From: Thermoleophilia bacterium | Lineage (GTDB): Bacteria; Actinomycetota; Thermoleophilia; BMS3ABIN01 | NCBI GenBank assembly: GCA_014874265.1 | Contig: JACWAM010000069.1 | Location: forward strand, 1 to 61,544 | Reading direction: 5' to 3' | Length of the DNA stretch: 61,544 nucleotides | Shown: one piece after another, positions 20,593-55,828 of the stretch | How positions within the stretch are numbered: the first letter of the stretch is position 1 | How the letters are laid out: each line of letters starts with the position of its first letter | Translations under genes and position numbers: made by a program | The notes under the pieces: model-generated | The model's input: the letters and a program-made list of their open reading frames with translations, nothing else | What the model was told of the DNA's origin: nothing | Databases searched by the model: none

Positions 20593-22398
20593 ATGTCCGA
20601 CCAGTCTCTGATCCGAAACTTTTCCATTATCGCTCATATCGATCACGGCAAGTCGACGCTGGCCGACCGTATCCTCGAAATCACCAATACAGTCAGCGGC
20701 CGGGATATCACCGATCAGATGCTGGACATGATGGACCTGGAGCGGGAGCGCGGCATCACCATCAAGGCGCAGGCTGCGCGCGTGCTCTATAACGCCGCCG
20801 ACGGGCGCACATACATGCTGCACCTGATTGACACTCCCGGCCACGTGGATTTTTCCTACGAGGTTTCCCGCAGCCTGGCCGCCTGCGAAGGCGCGCTGCT
20901 GGTGGTTGATGCCGCCCAGGGCATTCAGGCGCAGACGCTGGCGAACACGTATCTGGCGATAGACAACAATCTAGAAATTATCCCCGTGCTCAACAAGATC
21001 GACCTTCCGGCGGCCGACCCCGAGCGTGTAGCCGGCGACATCTCCGAGCTGTTTGGCGTGGACCCTGATGATGTCCTGCGCGTGTCGGCCAAGACGGGGG
21101 AAGGCGTCGGTGCGGTGCTGGAGGCGATTGTAAACCGGATTCCACCGCCGGCCGGCGAATCTGACGCACCGCCGCGGGCGCTCATTTTCGACTCTGTTTA
21201 TGATCAGTACCGTGGCGTCATCGCCTTCGTGCGCGTGGTCGACGGAGTCTTTTACAAAGGGGATGAGATCGTCGCCATGGAGCTGGGCACGCGGGCCGAT
21301 GTCGAGGAGGTCGGCTTCTTCTCGCCCAACATGATGCCGGCGCCGTCGCTGGCCGCCGGCGAGGTTGGCTATATCATCACCGGCATCAAGACCGTGCGGG
21401 ACCTGCGTGTAGGCGACACGCTCTCGAGCGCCGGGAGCCGCGCACAGGCGCCGTTGCCCGGCTACCGCGAGGCCAAGCCGATGGTTTTCTGCGGCCTCTT
21501 TCCCATCGATGGCGACGACTACCCGGCGCTGCGTGACGCGCTGGAAAAGCTAAAACTCAACGACGCCGCGTTCAGCTATGAGCCCGAGACCTCGCAGGCG
21601 CTTGGCTTTGGCTTCCGCTGCGGCTTTCTCGGCCTGCTTCACATGGACATCGTCCGCGAGCGCCTGGAGCGTGAGTATGACCTGGACTTGCTGGCAACAA
21701 CACCAAACGTCGAATATAATCTCCAGCTCTCCGACGGCAGCGAGATCGTTGTCCGCAGTCCCGCGGAGATGCCGGATCCGGTCCGGATCGCGCTTGTGCG
21801 CGAGCCATTCGTGAAGGCTGCGGTCCTGGTCCCCGGTGACTTTGTCGGACCGGTGATGGAGCTTTGTCAGGAGCGCCGCGGCGATTTCGAGGACATGCAG
21901 TATCTGTCGTCCAACCGGGTGCAGATTCGTTACCGGCTGCCGCTGGCGGAAATTGTGCTGGATTTCTTCGATCAACTCAAATCGCGCACCAAGGGCTATG
22001 CCTCGCTGGATTATGAAATGGATGGTTACCGGGAAAGCGACTTGGTCAAACTCGACATCATCATTGCCGGCGAGGTGGTGGATGCATTGTCACTTATAGT
22101 TCATCGGGACAAAGCTTTTGCCCAGGGGAAAGCGCTGGCCGAGCGGCTGAAGGCCGAGATCCCCCGGCAGTTGTTTGAGGTGGCTATCCAGGCCGCCATC
22201 GGCAAGAAGATCATCGCCCGGGAGACGATCCCGGCCAAGCGCAAGGACGTGCTGGCCAAGTGTTATGGCGGCGACATCTCTCGCAAGCGCAAGCTGCTAG
22301 AGAAGCAGAAAGCGGGGAAGAAAAGAATGAAGCAGGTAGGAAACGTGGAAATTCCTCAGCGCGCTTTCCTGGCGGTGCTGGATTTAGAAAAGAAATAG
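20593..22398 (+). CDS. lepA: Elongation factor 4
   Basis: [46 protein letters not shown]. Confidence 0.98.
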
Positions 22399-52171: not shown

Positions 52172-52819
52172 ATGAATCTGAGCAAAGACTATCCAGCCAA
52201 GCGCTCCCGGCGCCAGGGGCGGGGAGAGCGCTATCGGGAAGGGCGTCCTCACCGGCCTGACGGCCCGTCTTTCCGGCTTTTTTTCGCGGTCGAGATTCCC
52301 GAGGAAGCCACCGGCAGGCTGGTTGCCTGGCAAAGGGATTTTCTGGCAGCTGACCGGGCGCTCAGGCTTGTTCCCCGGGAGCAGCTGCATATAACGCTGA
52401 TCTTCCTGGGCCAGAAGAACGAGGAAGAGCTTGTGCGGGTGTCCGGACAGCTGGATGAGCTCGCGGATGAAGATCCGCTGACCTCATTTGAAGCAGCGGC
52501 AACCGCGATGGTGGGGCTGCCGAAGGGAAGAACGCCACGGGTGATCGCCGCCAGCATCGAAGAACCGGCCGGGCGGCTTAAGAGCATCCACGGCCGGCTG
52601 GCGGCAACGCTCGCCCGGAAACAGCTCTTCCAACTGGAGCGGCGTCAGTTTTTTCCCCACGTCACCATCGCCCGGGCCCGTGGCCGGGTGCATCTTGACC
52701 TGGCTCAAATGCAACCTGATCCGGTCAAATTTACAGCCGTCCGAATCACGCTGTATAATAGCATTCTCAAATCAAGCGGGGCCATACATCAGGCCCTGAA
52801 AACGGTCCAACTCAATTAA
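52172..52819 (+). CDS. thpR: RNA 2',3'-cyclic phosphodiesterase (2H family)
   Basis: RLFFAV, two HxT motifs (LHITL, PHVTI). Confidence 0.92.
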   Translation: MNLSKDYPAKRSRRQGRGERYREGRPHRPDGPSFRLFFAVEIPEEATGRLVAWQRDFLAADRALRLVPREQLHITLIFLGQKNEEELVRVSGQLDELADEDPLTSFEAAATAMVGLPKGRTPRVIAASIEEPAGRLKSIHGRLAATLARKQLFQLERRQFFPHVTIARARGRVHLDLAQMQPDPVKFTAVRITLYNSILKSSGAIHQALKTVQLN

Positions 52820-52831
52820 CTGGAGGCAGAA

Positions 52832-53902
52832 GTGGAAAAAGACAAAGCGTTGGAAGTTGCATTGGGCCAGATCGAACGCCAGTTCGGCAAGGGATCGATC
52901 ATGCGCATGGGGGACGACTGTGCCGGCATACAGGTCGGCGTAATTCCCACCGGGGCTTTGGCGCTCGACATTGCGCTGGGCATCGGCGGCCTGCCACATG
53001 GCCGTGTCGTGGAAGTTTTCGGGCCGGAGGCGTCCGGCAAGACAACCCTTGTCTACCATGTCATCGCCGAGGCTCAGAAACGGGGCGGAATCGCCGCGTT
53101 TATCGATGCGGAGCACGCCATGGATCCGGTATACGCCCGCCGGATTGGCGTCAATGTTGACGACCTGCTGGTTTCCCAGCCCGATTACGGCGAGCAGGCG
53201 CTGGAGATCGCGGAGATGCTCATCCGCAGCGGCGCTCTGGATGTGGTCGCCGTCGATTCGGTGGCGGCGCTCACGCCTAAGGCTGAGATTGAGGGTGAGA
53301 TGGGTGACTCGCATGTCGGGCTTCAGGCCCGCTTGATGTCTCAGGCCCTCAGGAAGCTGGCCGGGACTCTCAACAAGACTGGTACGGTGGCCATCTTCAC
53401 CAACCAGTTGCGGGAGAAGATCGGTGTTATGTTCGGCAATCCCGAGGTGACGCCGGGCGGCAAGGCTTTGAAATTCTATGCATCTGTTCGCCTCGATCTG
53501 CGTCGGATAGAAACATTAAAGGAAGGGACGCAGGCGATCGGCAACCGGGTCCGCGCCAAGGTGGTCAAGAACAAAATGGCGCCGCCGTTCCGGCAGGCCG
53601 AATTCGACGTTATGTACGGAGAAGGCATTTCCCGCGAAGGCAACATTCTTGATATGGGCGTGGCCCATGGAATTATCGACAAGAGCGGCGCTTTCTTCTC
53701 GTATGGCGGCGAGCGGCTCGGGCAGGGCCGCAATAATTCCAAAGTGTTCCTCAAGGAAAACAAGGATCTGGCGCAGGTGATCTTGCGCGAAACACTGCAT
53801 GCCGCGGGCGTGGATTTGTCGCCAGCCGAAGATGATGCGGCTGTGGCGGAGCAGGCGCCGGAGGCGATGGTAACCCGCAAGAAAGCTGCTTCCAAAGCCT
53901 GA
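52832..53902 (+). CDS. recA: Recombinase RecA
   Basis: [46 protein letters not shown]. Confidence 0.99.
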
Positions 53903-53922
53903 AAAAACAGTCAGCACCTTGA

Positions 53923-53952
53923 TTGACAGCGCTAGTCCGGCGGCGATAGAAT
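53923..53952 (+). promoter_or_regulatory. sigma70 promoter
   Basis: TTGACA, 18 nt, TAGAAT. Confidence 0.65.
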
Positions 53953-53958
53953 GAAAGT

Positions 53959-54214
53959 GTTCTACAATCTGCTTTGCATATTAGGCGATCAACGATAGAT
54001 TTCCTTGTTTTTTAGCATTTCAAGGCTTAATGGCAATAAACATGGCTATCAATAGCTGCGACGGGCTTAGTGAAAGTAATGGGAGTCCAGAAATTTCACT
54101 AGCATAAATACCCGGATGCCCGGTCTTCCCGGGAGTTTATGGCGGGCGGGCGCCGCCATACAAGGAAAACTAAATTGGTTTCGTATATGCCGAGCAGGTA
54201 TTGCTCGGCTTTTT
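53959..54214 (+). ncRNA. Candidate 6S-like RNA (or structured rny leader)
   Basis: Bounded by promoter and terminator; long irregular rod with a central bubble (pairings listed in findings). Confidence 0.5.
54189..54214 (+). terminator. Intrinsic terminator upstream of rny
   Basis: GCCGAGCA-GGTAT-TGCTCGGC (8-bp perfect stem) followed by T5. Confidence 0.8.
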
Positions 54215-54295
54215 CATTTTTAAGCCGGGATCGTGGCCAGCAATGAGATGTTTTAGGTCAGGCCGGCCGCCTATTGATTGAGACTGGAGCATGTT

Positions 54296-55828
54296 ATGAA
54301 TCTAGTGCTGATTGCGATTGTGGTTGCGCTTGTTTTCCTTGCCGTCGGTTTTTTCCTGCGAAAGGCGCTTTCGGAATCGAAATTGTCATCCCTGGAAAAA
54401 GAGGCGGAAAGGGCCCGCAGCGATGCCGCCCGGGAGGTAGAGACTATCCGCCGTTCCGCGGAGGTGGAGGCGCGGGAAAAGCTGCAACAATTCCGCGAAG
54501 AGGCTGAAAACGAGTTGAAAGACCGGCGGTCGGAGGTGTTAAGGAGCGAGCAGCGGCTGGAGGACAAGGAAAAGTTTCTCGCCGACAGGGACAGGGAGGT
54601 CCAGCGCCGGGAGCAGTCCTTGCTGGACCGTGAGGCCAATATCCAGAAAATTGGGGAGGACCTGCAGCAATCTCTTGATGAGCAGCGCCGGCAATTGGAG
54701 CGGGTCTCGGGCTTTACCAGCCAGCAGGCGAAGGACCTGCTTCTGAAGCAGGTCGAGGAAGAGGCGCGGCACGATATGGCTAAGATGGTCCGCTCGATCG
54801 AGGAAGACGCCAGGCGGGAATCTGACCGCCGGGCAAGGAACATTCTTTCGCTGAGCATCCAGCGCACGGCCGCCAACCATGCGGCTGAAACCACCGTCTC
54901 GGTAGTGCCGCTGCCATCTGACGAGATGAAAGGCCGCATCATTGGCCGCGAAGGCCGTAATATCCGGGCGCTGGAAAATATCAGCGGCATTGACGTGATC
55001 ATCGATGATACGCCGGAGGCGGTAGTTCTCAGCGGGTTTGATGGCGTCAAACGCGAAATCGCCCGGCTCACCCTGACAAAACTGCTGGCGGACGGACGGA
55101 TCCACCCTGCCCGCATTGAGGATACTTACAAGCAGGCTAAAGCTGAGGTTGAGAAAGCGATTATGGAAGCCGGCGAGCAGGCGACGTTGGAGGCAAATGT
55201 CCACGGTGTTCCCGAAAACCTCGTCAAGCTCCTGGGACGGTTAAAGTACCGGACCAGCTACGGCCAGAACGTTCTGGCCCACTCGCTGGAAGTGAGCCAT
55301 CTGGCCGGAATCATGGCCGCGGAGCTGGGCGCCAGCACGAAGCTGGTGCGCCGGGCCGGCCTTTTGCATGATATCGGCAAGGCTGTCGACCATCAGATTG
55401 AGGGCACCCATGCCGGCATCGGCGCAAATCTGGCCAAGAAAAACAGGGAGAGCCAGGCCATCTGGCACGCGATTGAGGCTCATCACGGCGATGTGGAGCC
55501 GCAAACGGTGGAAGCGGTGCTGGTCCAGGCCGGCGACGCTGTAAGCGCAGCCCGGCCGGGAGCGCGCCGCGACAGCCTCGAGAGCTATATCAAACGGCTG
55601 GAGTCTCTGGAGAGTATCGCCGTTAGCAAGAAAGGCGTTGAGAAGTGCTATGTGATGCAGGCCGGACGGGAGATTCGCGTCATGGTCAAGCCGGCGGAGA
55701 TCGATGATGACGAGGCGGCGCTGCTGTCGCGAGAAATTGCCAAAGAGATCGAAAAGCAGCTGGATTACCCCGGTCAGATCAAGGTGACGGTGATCCGCGA
55801 AAGCCGCGCGACGGAGTACGCCAAGTAG
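54296..55828 (+). CDS. rny: Ribonuclease Y
   Basis: N-terminal TM, coiled coil, KH domain ([14 protein letters not shown]), HD domain (LLHDIGKA). Confidence 0.97.

Follow-up and report, generated by a model that had tools for sequence, protein, structure and literature searches.

The spacer between recA and rny, the gene for the endoribonuclease RNase Y, holds a promoter, a structured leader RNA and an intrinsic terminator in a Thermoleophilia bacterium (assembly GCA_014874265.1). The stretch analysed, hereafter the window, comprises positions 1 to 61,544 (61,544 nucleotides, nt) of the forward strand of contig JACWAM010000069.1, and its source genome (G000) is a 2.0-Mb metagenome bin of 126 contigs. 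We read the leader as a cis-acting transcription attenuator of rny that represents an RNA family outside Rfam, limited to one uncultured Thermoleophilia family, and we give this reading a probability of roughly 60%. The predicted switch is an outer stem, formed by the 5' and 3' ends of the leader, that competes with the terminator. An rny attenuator had been the second choice of a preliminary description of this DNA, after a 6S-like RNA. In outline it was borne out by the promoter, the terminator, the competing helix and the distribution of the element among genomes.

Promoter, terminator and pairings of the leader

The recA-rny spacer covers positions 53903-54295. In a simple scan of 53700-54500, TTGACA-18-TAGAAT was the sole promoter-like site, and from it we infer a transcript start at about 53957-53960. 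Scans for promoters and terminators upheld the earlier observation that a promoter and a terminator enclose about 255 nt here. The parts of the locus are:

52832-53902, forward strand: recA, encoding the Pfam domains RecA and RecA_C, the upstream neighbour of the leader
53923-53952, forward strand: sigma-70-type promoter, with -35 box TTGACA (53923-28), 18-nt spacer and -10 box TAGAAT (53947-52), 11/12 matches
53954-54214, forward strand: leader RNA as matched by covariance model R1 (47.8 bits, E 2e-11, whole model 1-224), the single match in the genome
54189-54214, forward strand: intrinsic terminator GCCGAGCAG-GTA-TTGCTCGGC, stem 54189-97 / 54201-09, U-tract TTTTT at 54210-14
54215-54295, forward strand: variable spacer from terminator to rny, free of promoter-like sites, with Shine-Dalgarno sequence GGAG at 54286-89
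54296-55828, forward strand: rny, encoding RNase Y (510 amino acids) with RNase_Y_N, KH and HD domains, the gene that the attenuator would regulate

Every pairing proposed in the preliminary description was found in place. GCATAT (53976-81) pairs with ATATGC (54185-90), and TTTCCTTGT (54000-08) forms a perfect 9-bp helix with ACAAGGAAA (54160-68). Further inside, GCAATAAAC (54033-41) and GTTTATGGC (54135-43) make 8/9 pairs, GACGGGC (54060-66) pairs with GCCCGGTC (54118-25) around one bulge, TAGTGAAA (54068-75) pairs with TTTCACTA (54094-101), and TATGGCGG (54138-45) pairs with CCGCCATA (54153-60). The minimum free energy (MFE) of the 265-nt stretch was -85.4 kcal/mol, compared with -70.7 ± 4.6 kcal/mol for dinucleotide shuffles (z = -3.24), and 1 of 200 shuffles was as good.

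Distribution across genomes

A BLAST search started from the window spacer retrieved sequences of just two genera, the window's own and one other. We therefore relied on R1, which was built from nine sequences of genera other than the window's. R1 gave exactly one match in 21 of the 24 genomes of the family and none in 377 other genomes of the class Thermoleophilia. The three family genomes with no R1 match also have no rny in the assembly, and the contig of one of them ends inside the element. Together with the copy in genome G012, which is cut by a contig end, the R1-positive genomes represent all nine genera of the family.

The invariant motif GGGCTTAGTGAAA-N(4-30)-TTCACT was present exactly once in 15/24 family genomes, and a reversed-pattern control gave no match. 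All 15 matches lay at the expected recA-rny spacer, beside recA, rny or both, as far as the contigs reach. A pattern scan of metagenomes added only three new copies, so that the set of full-length copies numbered 24 (21 genomes and 3 metagenome contigs). Public records with the motif, from groundwater, deep-mine and sediment samples, are bins named 'Thermoleophilia bacterium', 'Actinomycetota' or 'Actinomycetes'. The element occurs in single copy, is tied to rny and is limited to a single uncultured family within Thermoleophilia (Actinomycetota).

All 24 copies lie on the rny strand, with recA upstream and rny downstream wherever the contig reaches far enough. TTGACA-17/18-TAGAAT stands directly upstream in every copy, with the -10 variants TAAAAT in two copies and TATTAT in one. 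The leader measures about 255 nt in the window and about 215-275 nt in its relatives, and the terminator precedes the rny start by 80-100 nt in most copies (81 nt in the window). No promoter-like site was found between terminator and rny in any of the 24 copies by the scan, which covers sigma-70-type sites. In several relatives, sequences read by eye showed hairpins followed by T-runs after recA, and we read these as separate recA terminators. With no second promoter-like site seen by the scan and with the element on the rny strand in all copies, the most economical interpretation is that transcription can reach rny only by way of the leader and its terminator.

GTT (mostly GTTC) is nearly invariant in the family about 5-8 nt past the -10 box (window 53947-53962). 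Together with GAAT of the -10 box, GTTC makes an imperfect inverted repeat, GAAT-N6-GTTC, which could be an operator overlapping the transcript start or could simply reflect a constraint on the sequence transcribed first.

A complete unit of promoter and terminator would also suit a stand-alone small RNA (sRNA), that is, a terminated transcript of about 255 nt that acts in trans or binds a protein, with rny transcribed from an unrecognised promoter or by unregulated, leaky read-through. A simple attenuator could do with less than this conserved structured core, and an attenuator would release the same RNA as a by-product, for which a second role in trans is possible. We nevertheless consider a stand-alone sRNA improbable. 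The element always sits directly upstream of rny, on the same strand and once per genome, and is missing only from assemblies without rny. All 24 copies are devoid of a promoter-like site of their own for rny, and a plain sRNA would have no use for the conserved ability of the 5' end to pair with the terminator (see below).

Conserved fold and covariation

Single-sequence folds of the other genera shared one architecture, and RNAalifold recovered the same one. The 5' end is a tail of about 45 nt that carries a small hairpin, P0; P1 (GGUUUCUUUGU / ACAAAGGAAC) and then P2 come next. The junction that they close holds P3 (UGGC/GCCA), P4 (CGGG/CCCG), which encloses P5 (UAGUGAA/UUCACUA, its 3' internal loop A-rich), and P6, inside which lies the hairpin P6a. 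After the junction come a short linker and the terminator. Judged from these folds, the conserved core is a predicted four-way-junction domain on a stem. Its elements in the window are:

54000-54008, forward strand: P1 5' strand UUUCCUUGU, pairs with 54160-54168
54024-54057, forward strand: lineage-specific hairpins in place of P3, which is UGGC/GCCA in other genera
54062-54114, forward strand: P4 (CGGG 54062-65 / CCCG 54111-14), encloses P5 and the A-rich 3' internal loop
54068-54101, forward strand: P5 hairpin, UAGUGAAA (54068-75) / UUUCACUA (54094-101)
54138-54160, forward strand: P6a hairpin, UAUGGCGG / CCGCCAUA (arms 54138-45 / 54153-60)
54160-54168, forward strand: P1 3' strand ACAAGGAAA, pairs with 54000-54008

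Pairs were counted in a model-guided alignment of the 24 copies. The share of cells that pair was 93.2%, compared with 85.8% in column shuffles (0/500 as high), and 24 of 44 pairs had changed on both sides, compared with 10.2 in shuffles (0/500). When partners were slid by 1-3 columns as a control, pairing fell to 32-50%. The compensatory changes were concentrated in P1, P2, P3 and P6a: both-side changes occurred across the family at 6/7 pairs of P1, and all 5 pairs of the family helix 7, which is P6a, covaried. P4 showed one scored compensatory change (CAGG/CCUG in G007); a second, CCGG/CCGG in G006, was seen by eye only and is not scored as such in the pair count. All terminator cells paired across the 24 copies, and G023 and G007 carry compensatory A-U to G-C replacements. 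The P5 stem was nearly invariant around a loop of about 11-50 nt. P4, P5 and the junction nucleotides as a whole were almost invariant, and the loops of P5 and P6a varied.

Without guidance, RNAalifold recovered P1, P5, P6a and the terminator, and a new run on the model-guided alignment gave these same four elements despite the partial misalignment there. On plain MAFFT alignments of all genera P1 was lost, the window's genus being shifted and carrying insertions. Comparison of orthologous recA-rny spacers, a check named in the preliminary description, thus did find a covarying conserved fold, but one with a branched junction. The nested helices described for the window were kept in relatives in part: the outer 5'-3' stem, the 9-bp stem (P1), the apical hairpin (P5) and P6a have counterparts there, whereas the pairing GCAATAAAC/GTTTATGGC does not. 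In the family consensus, CGGG (window 54062-65) takes the first CCCG (54111-14) as its partner.

Predicted competition between the terminator and the outer stem

The outer 'closing stem' extends past ATATGC, which the preliminary description had missed: AUCUGCUU (53967-74) pairs with GAGCAGGU (54192-99). Since GAGCAGGU (54192-99) also serves as the terminator's left arm and loop, the RNA can form either the rod or the terminator but not both. The strands involved are:

53967-53981, forward strand: 5' antiterminator strand AUCUGCUUUGCAUAU, pairs with 54185-54199
53984-53998, forward strand: antiterminator extension, 5' strand, partner of 54170-54182, carrying the rod on to P1
54170-54199, forward strand: antiterminator 3' strand, with the extension at 54170-82, AUAUGC at 54185-90 and GAGCAGGU at 54192-99, overlapping the left arm and loop of the terminator

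Every one of the 24 copies has a 5'-proximal (A)UCUGCUY complementary to GAGCAG(AU) in the terminator left arm and loop, with an invariant 6-bp core, CUGCUY/GAGCAG. The antiterminator 3' strand has changed from A to G at three different positions, each of them facing U, so that a wobble pair was kept; an A-to-G change within the terminator left arm was also compensated inside the terminator. Beside this core, each lineage had an extension of its own: UCGAAA/UUUCGA in G023, UCGAU/AUCGA in G018, ACACAC/GUGUGU in G006, CACAU/AUGUG in G019, and GCAU/AUGC with further pairs down to P1 in the window's genus. Helices at the same place made of different sequences in each lineage may be taken as evidence resembling covariation.

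The best duplex between the 5' tail and the left side of the terminator was more stable than those of shuffled tails in 24/24 copies (z -1.2 to -5.1). Energies of the terminator-forced and antiterminator-forced folds differed by -5.1 to +6.0 kcal/mol (mean +0.5) at totals of -60 to -100 kcal/mol. When the transcript was cut just before the terminator right arm, the MFE fold contained the antiterminator in all 24 copies. Two stable folds are therefore predicted, namely the terminator with a free 5' tail, or a rod composed of antiterminator, extension and P1, and the P1-P6 core is identical in both. The hairpin at 54138-60 that had been put forward as a mutually exclusive switch turned out to be the conserved P6a, which is present in both states.

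Three hallmarks of an attenuator were found here: a same-strand 5' leader with its sole promoter upstream (24/24, by the sigma-70-type scan), an intrinsic terminator, GC-rich hairpin plus U-tract, before the open reading frame (ORF), and, by prediction and conservation, an excluding helix of comparable stability.

The core raises the question of a ligand. Covarying stems around invariant junction nucleotides, as in a conserved aptamer, were found, and an ON switch of the riboswitch kind would have P1-P6 bind a small molecule, an ion, a protein or another RNA. The bound core would close P1 and bring the 5' strand to the terminator left arm, giving read-through, and the unbound leader would form the terminator. 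The pattern of covarying P1, P2, P3 and P6a, near-invariant P4/P5 and junction, and variable P5 and P6a loops fits this reading, as does the lack of a conserved ORF in the leader. The antiterminator here stacks directly on P1, an arrangement that recalls the P1 helices of ON riboswitches such as the pbuE adenine riboswitch. Yet the core is the same in both predicted states, which leaves ligand dependence invisible in the sequence; a distribution limited to one family and a single gene is commoner among autoregulatory or protein-binding leaders than among metabolite riboswitches; and a single downstream gene for a general RNase points to no ligand. We judge such a ligand-driven switch rather unlikely.

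An unregulated structured 5' untranslated region (UTR), in which the rod shields the rny mRNA from 5'-end-dependent RNases and a weak terminator fixes the expression level, appears decidedly improbable to us. The antiterminator state does bury the 5' end in a long helix, and 5'-terminal structures are known to stabilise mRNAs. However, a fixed level needs neither near-isoenergetic, exclusive folds kept in 24/24 copies nor an invariant P4/P5 core.

Relation to 6S RNA

The preliminary description had favoured a 6S-like RNA. That identification did not hold: neither the 6S nor the Ms1 model of Rfam matched this strand of 53850-54350, even at E <= 10. Rfam 15 at gathering scores gave no match in the whole window, and at E <= 10 it gave only three chance matches, on the minus strand of 53850-54350 (mir-9418, rliE and PreQ1). 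The leader is an RNA family absent from Rfam.

The same genome carries a canonical 6S RNA (RF00013) elsewhere, at 22226-22381 (minus strand) of contig C56 (locus L001, 1501-1656), which scored 71.7 bits against a cut-off of 46.4 (E 2.7e-14). A Thermoleophilia-type genome thus has a standard 6S RNA, contrary to the earlier expectation that most Actinomycetota lack a canonical one. Since the canonical 6S RNA sits on another contig, the RNA of the recA-rny spacer is not the 6S gene of this genome. Most bacteria carry one 6S gene, and a few, such as B. subtilis, carry two.

The layout of closing stem, central bubble and inner stem that had suggested 6S was replaced in the family consensus by P1-P2 closing a multi-helix junction (P3, P4-P5, P6a). 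The long rod is confined to the window's genus, where it overlaps the terminator, and elsewhere in the family the 5'-3' stem is short. The leader resembles 6S RNA (RF00013) in size (about 200-260 nt) and in having its 5' and 3' ends paired in one conformer. It differs in failing the model, in a core that is branched instead of opening into a central bubble, and in a terminator upstream of a gene.

A 6S-like or Ms1-like RNA that binds RNA polymerase is therefore, in our view, a very remote prospect for the leader. The MFE fold in the window's genus is rod-like with paired ends. A loose lead only comes from RNA immunoprecipitation sequencing (RIP-seq) in B. subtilis, where RNA polymerase co-precipitates rny mRNA (PMC11077062), a result that is not evidence on this element. 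Set against this are the failed 6S and Ms1 models, the canonical 6S RNA elsewhere in the genome, the short 5'-3' stem and conserved branched junction of the other genera, and an intrinsic terminator at the end of the element that competes with the element's own closing stem.

Leaders of sister families

Comparable rny loci were found in sister families f3 and f5 and in record L009, whose RNase Y is 64-70% identical to that of the window (L009 2134-2500; L161, L162 and L164-L167, from f3 and f5). In these loci a promoter is followed by a leader of about 230-275 nt, and the terminator stands 55-115 nt ahead of the rny start. The L009 leader comes after a 214-amino-acid ORF that we provisionally take to be recX. 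The truncated-transcript fold paired the 5' end with the region of the terminator left arm in 6/7 of these leaders, and the terminators resemble that of the window (GGCCGGGC...GCCCGGCC, then TTTTTCGTG). R1 did not detect the bodies of the sister-family leaders, and L009 aligned with it at the terminator only (11.6 bits). Simple scans showed no such rny leader layout in f4, f6 and f7. The sister-family leaders may form a wider rny-leader superfamily or may reflect convergence; homology is unproven.

Comparison with known leaders

The leader precedes the gene of a major endoribonuclease, as the RNase_Y_N, KH and HD domains encoded downstream show, and leaders of such genes are known to serve autoregulation. 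E. coli RNase E controls its own synthesis through the structured 5' UTR of rne. The leader shares with rne5 (RF00040) that it is a structured leader of the gene of the main decay-initiating endoribonuclease; rne5, in contrast, acts via mRNA decay and not via intrinsic termination, and RNase E and RNase Y belong to different families.

B. subtilis RNase Y regulates its own expression by cleaving the 164-nt 5' UTR of rny, chiefly within the first ~50 nt (Korobeinikova et al. 2023, PMC10303841). That leader acts on mRNA stability, through the RNase Y cut and then RNase J1 trimming; the word 'terminator' does not occur in the paper, and no terminator switch is described there (PMC10303841). Both leaders are long, untranslated, preceded by a sigma-A-type promoter and placed in front of rny, and the B. 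subtilis one is a precedent for homeostatic control of RNase Y via its own leader. The Thermoleophilia leader differs in having a terminator, an antiterminator and a covarying four-way core. We found no sequence or structure homology to the B. subtilis rny leader or to rne5 (RF00040). Literature searches turned up neither an account of an rny attenuator nor any work on RNase Y in Thermoleophilia.

In its arrangement the element resembles ON riboswitches such as pbuE and T-box leaders. As in these, a structured sensor domain precedes a terminator, an alternative helix takes the left arm of the terminator, and the choice between the two rests with the outermost helix of the domain. Unlike them, it has its antiterminator strand at the very 5' end of the transcript, some 200 nt from the partner strand, its sensor core is unchanged between states, and it matches no Rfam riboswitch or T-box.

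Possible input of the switch

Under the attenuator reading, rny transcription would require read-through of the leader terminator. Read-through would be the default outcome, since both antiterminator strands are made before the terminator right arm. The terminator would form when the 5' strand is removed, occupied, delayed or out-competed.

Our guess, held at somewhat less than even odds and drawn by analogy, is that the input is RNase Y itself, in a negative feedback. At high levels of free RNase Y, the AU-rich, single-stranded 5' tail would be cut, or trimmed from its 5' end. With the tail the antiterminator strand would be lost, and rny transcription would end early. The conserved core would then be a scaffold that joins both strands, or a recognition platform. 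We favour this feedback because rny is the only regulated gene and because RNase E autoregulates through the rne leader. B. subtilis RNase Y likewise autoregulates through its own rny leader (PMC10303841), which is a further reason.

Taken further, the element might be a 'cut-the-tether' attenuator that gauges RNase Y activity while it is being transcribed: the antiterminator strand, tied to the rest of the nascent RNA by the AU-rich single-stranded tail, would be removed by free RNase Y or by 5'-end-dependent trimming before RNA polymerase arrives at the terminator, and spare RNase activity would turn directly into premature termination of rny; or P4/P5 might be a new aptamer that ties decay capacity to a metabolite. 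We offer this as a tentative idea that is less likely than not to hold.

Strength of the attenuator reading

Several points weigh against the attenuator and its proposed input. Among the 24 copies the antiterminator core showed no strict covariation or double compensation, some changes on the 5' side break outer antiterminator pairs (G007, G010, G009 and G005), and the antiterminator 3' strand is also constrained by the terminator. The alignment used for the pair counts was fitted to the model and so favours structure, and three sequences of the window's genus, which have an extra insert, are partly misaligned at P1. Termination, read-through and transcript start are all predictions. A promoter of a kind outside the sigma-70-type sites covered by the scan is conceivable before rny.

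For the input, the proposed connection between RNase Y and the leader is drawn by analogy. Timely cutting of a nascent leader by an enzyme that is membrane-anchored in B. subtilis would be kinetically demanding. The invariant P4/P5 core also exceeds what a cleavage target needs, which hints at a specific ligand or protein.

Neighbouring sequence and genes

The gene order around the element is cinA, a LigT/2',5'-RNA-ligase-like gene, recA, the spacer, rny and a MiaB-like radical-SAM gene. The LigT/2',5'-RNA-ligase-like phosphoesterase gene (215 amino acids) lies between cinA and recA at 52172-52819 on the forward strand. A gene for an enzyme of the RNA-end-processing type thus adjoins the recA-rny pair.

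Past the U-tract of the terminator, the window (54210-54228) and its relatives share a conserved GCR and, after it, a second U-run (in most genera UUUUUGCGUUUUUA). Beyond this second U-run and the Shine-Dalgarno sequence, the spacer between terminator and rny showed no conserved element; the rest is variable, with GC-rich hairpins.

The window leader contains a 25-codon ORF, MAINMAINSCDGLSESNGSPEISLA, at 54030-54107 on the forward strand (ATG at 54030), with a weak ribosome-binding site. It is exclusive to the window genome: the closest relative, G005, has no equivalent closed ORF, and it is absent in other genera. No conserved leader ORF with a ribosome-binding site was found across the 24 leaders. 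The ORF is probably a chance one, and we rejected a leader peptide or mini-ORF on the ground that it is not conserved across these leaders.

Implications

In many bacteria, Gram-positive and others, bulk mRNA decay begins with RNase Y, whose level therefore sets global mRNA half-lives. To our knowledge, the only regulation of RNase Y described so far is post-transcriptional, in B. subtilis. For annotation, this recA-rny spacer is not a 6S gene, and the true 6S RNA of the genome lies elsewhere. As an attenuator, the leader would be a new RNA family of a known mechanistic kind, a terminator/antiterminator leader, unusual in having its antiterminator strand at the extreme 5' end and a global RNase as its target. 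With its promoter, about 255 nt and a terminator, the element is a compact and directly testable unit. If the reading is true, it would add a family absent from Rfam, and some Actinomycetota would control RNase Y through premature termination. As similar terminator-containing rny leaders occur in sister families, this may be a widespread and so far undescribed form of RNase Y control.

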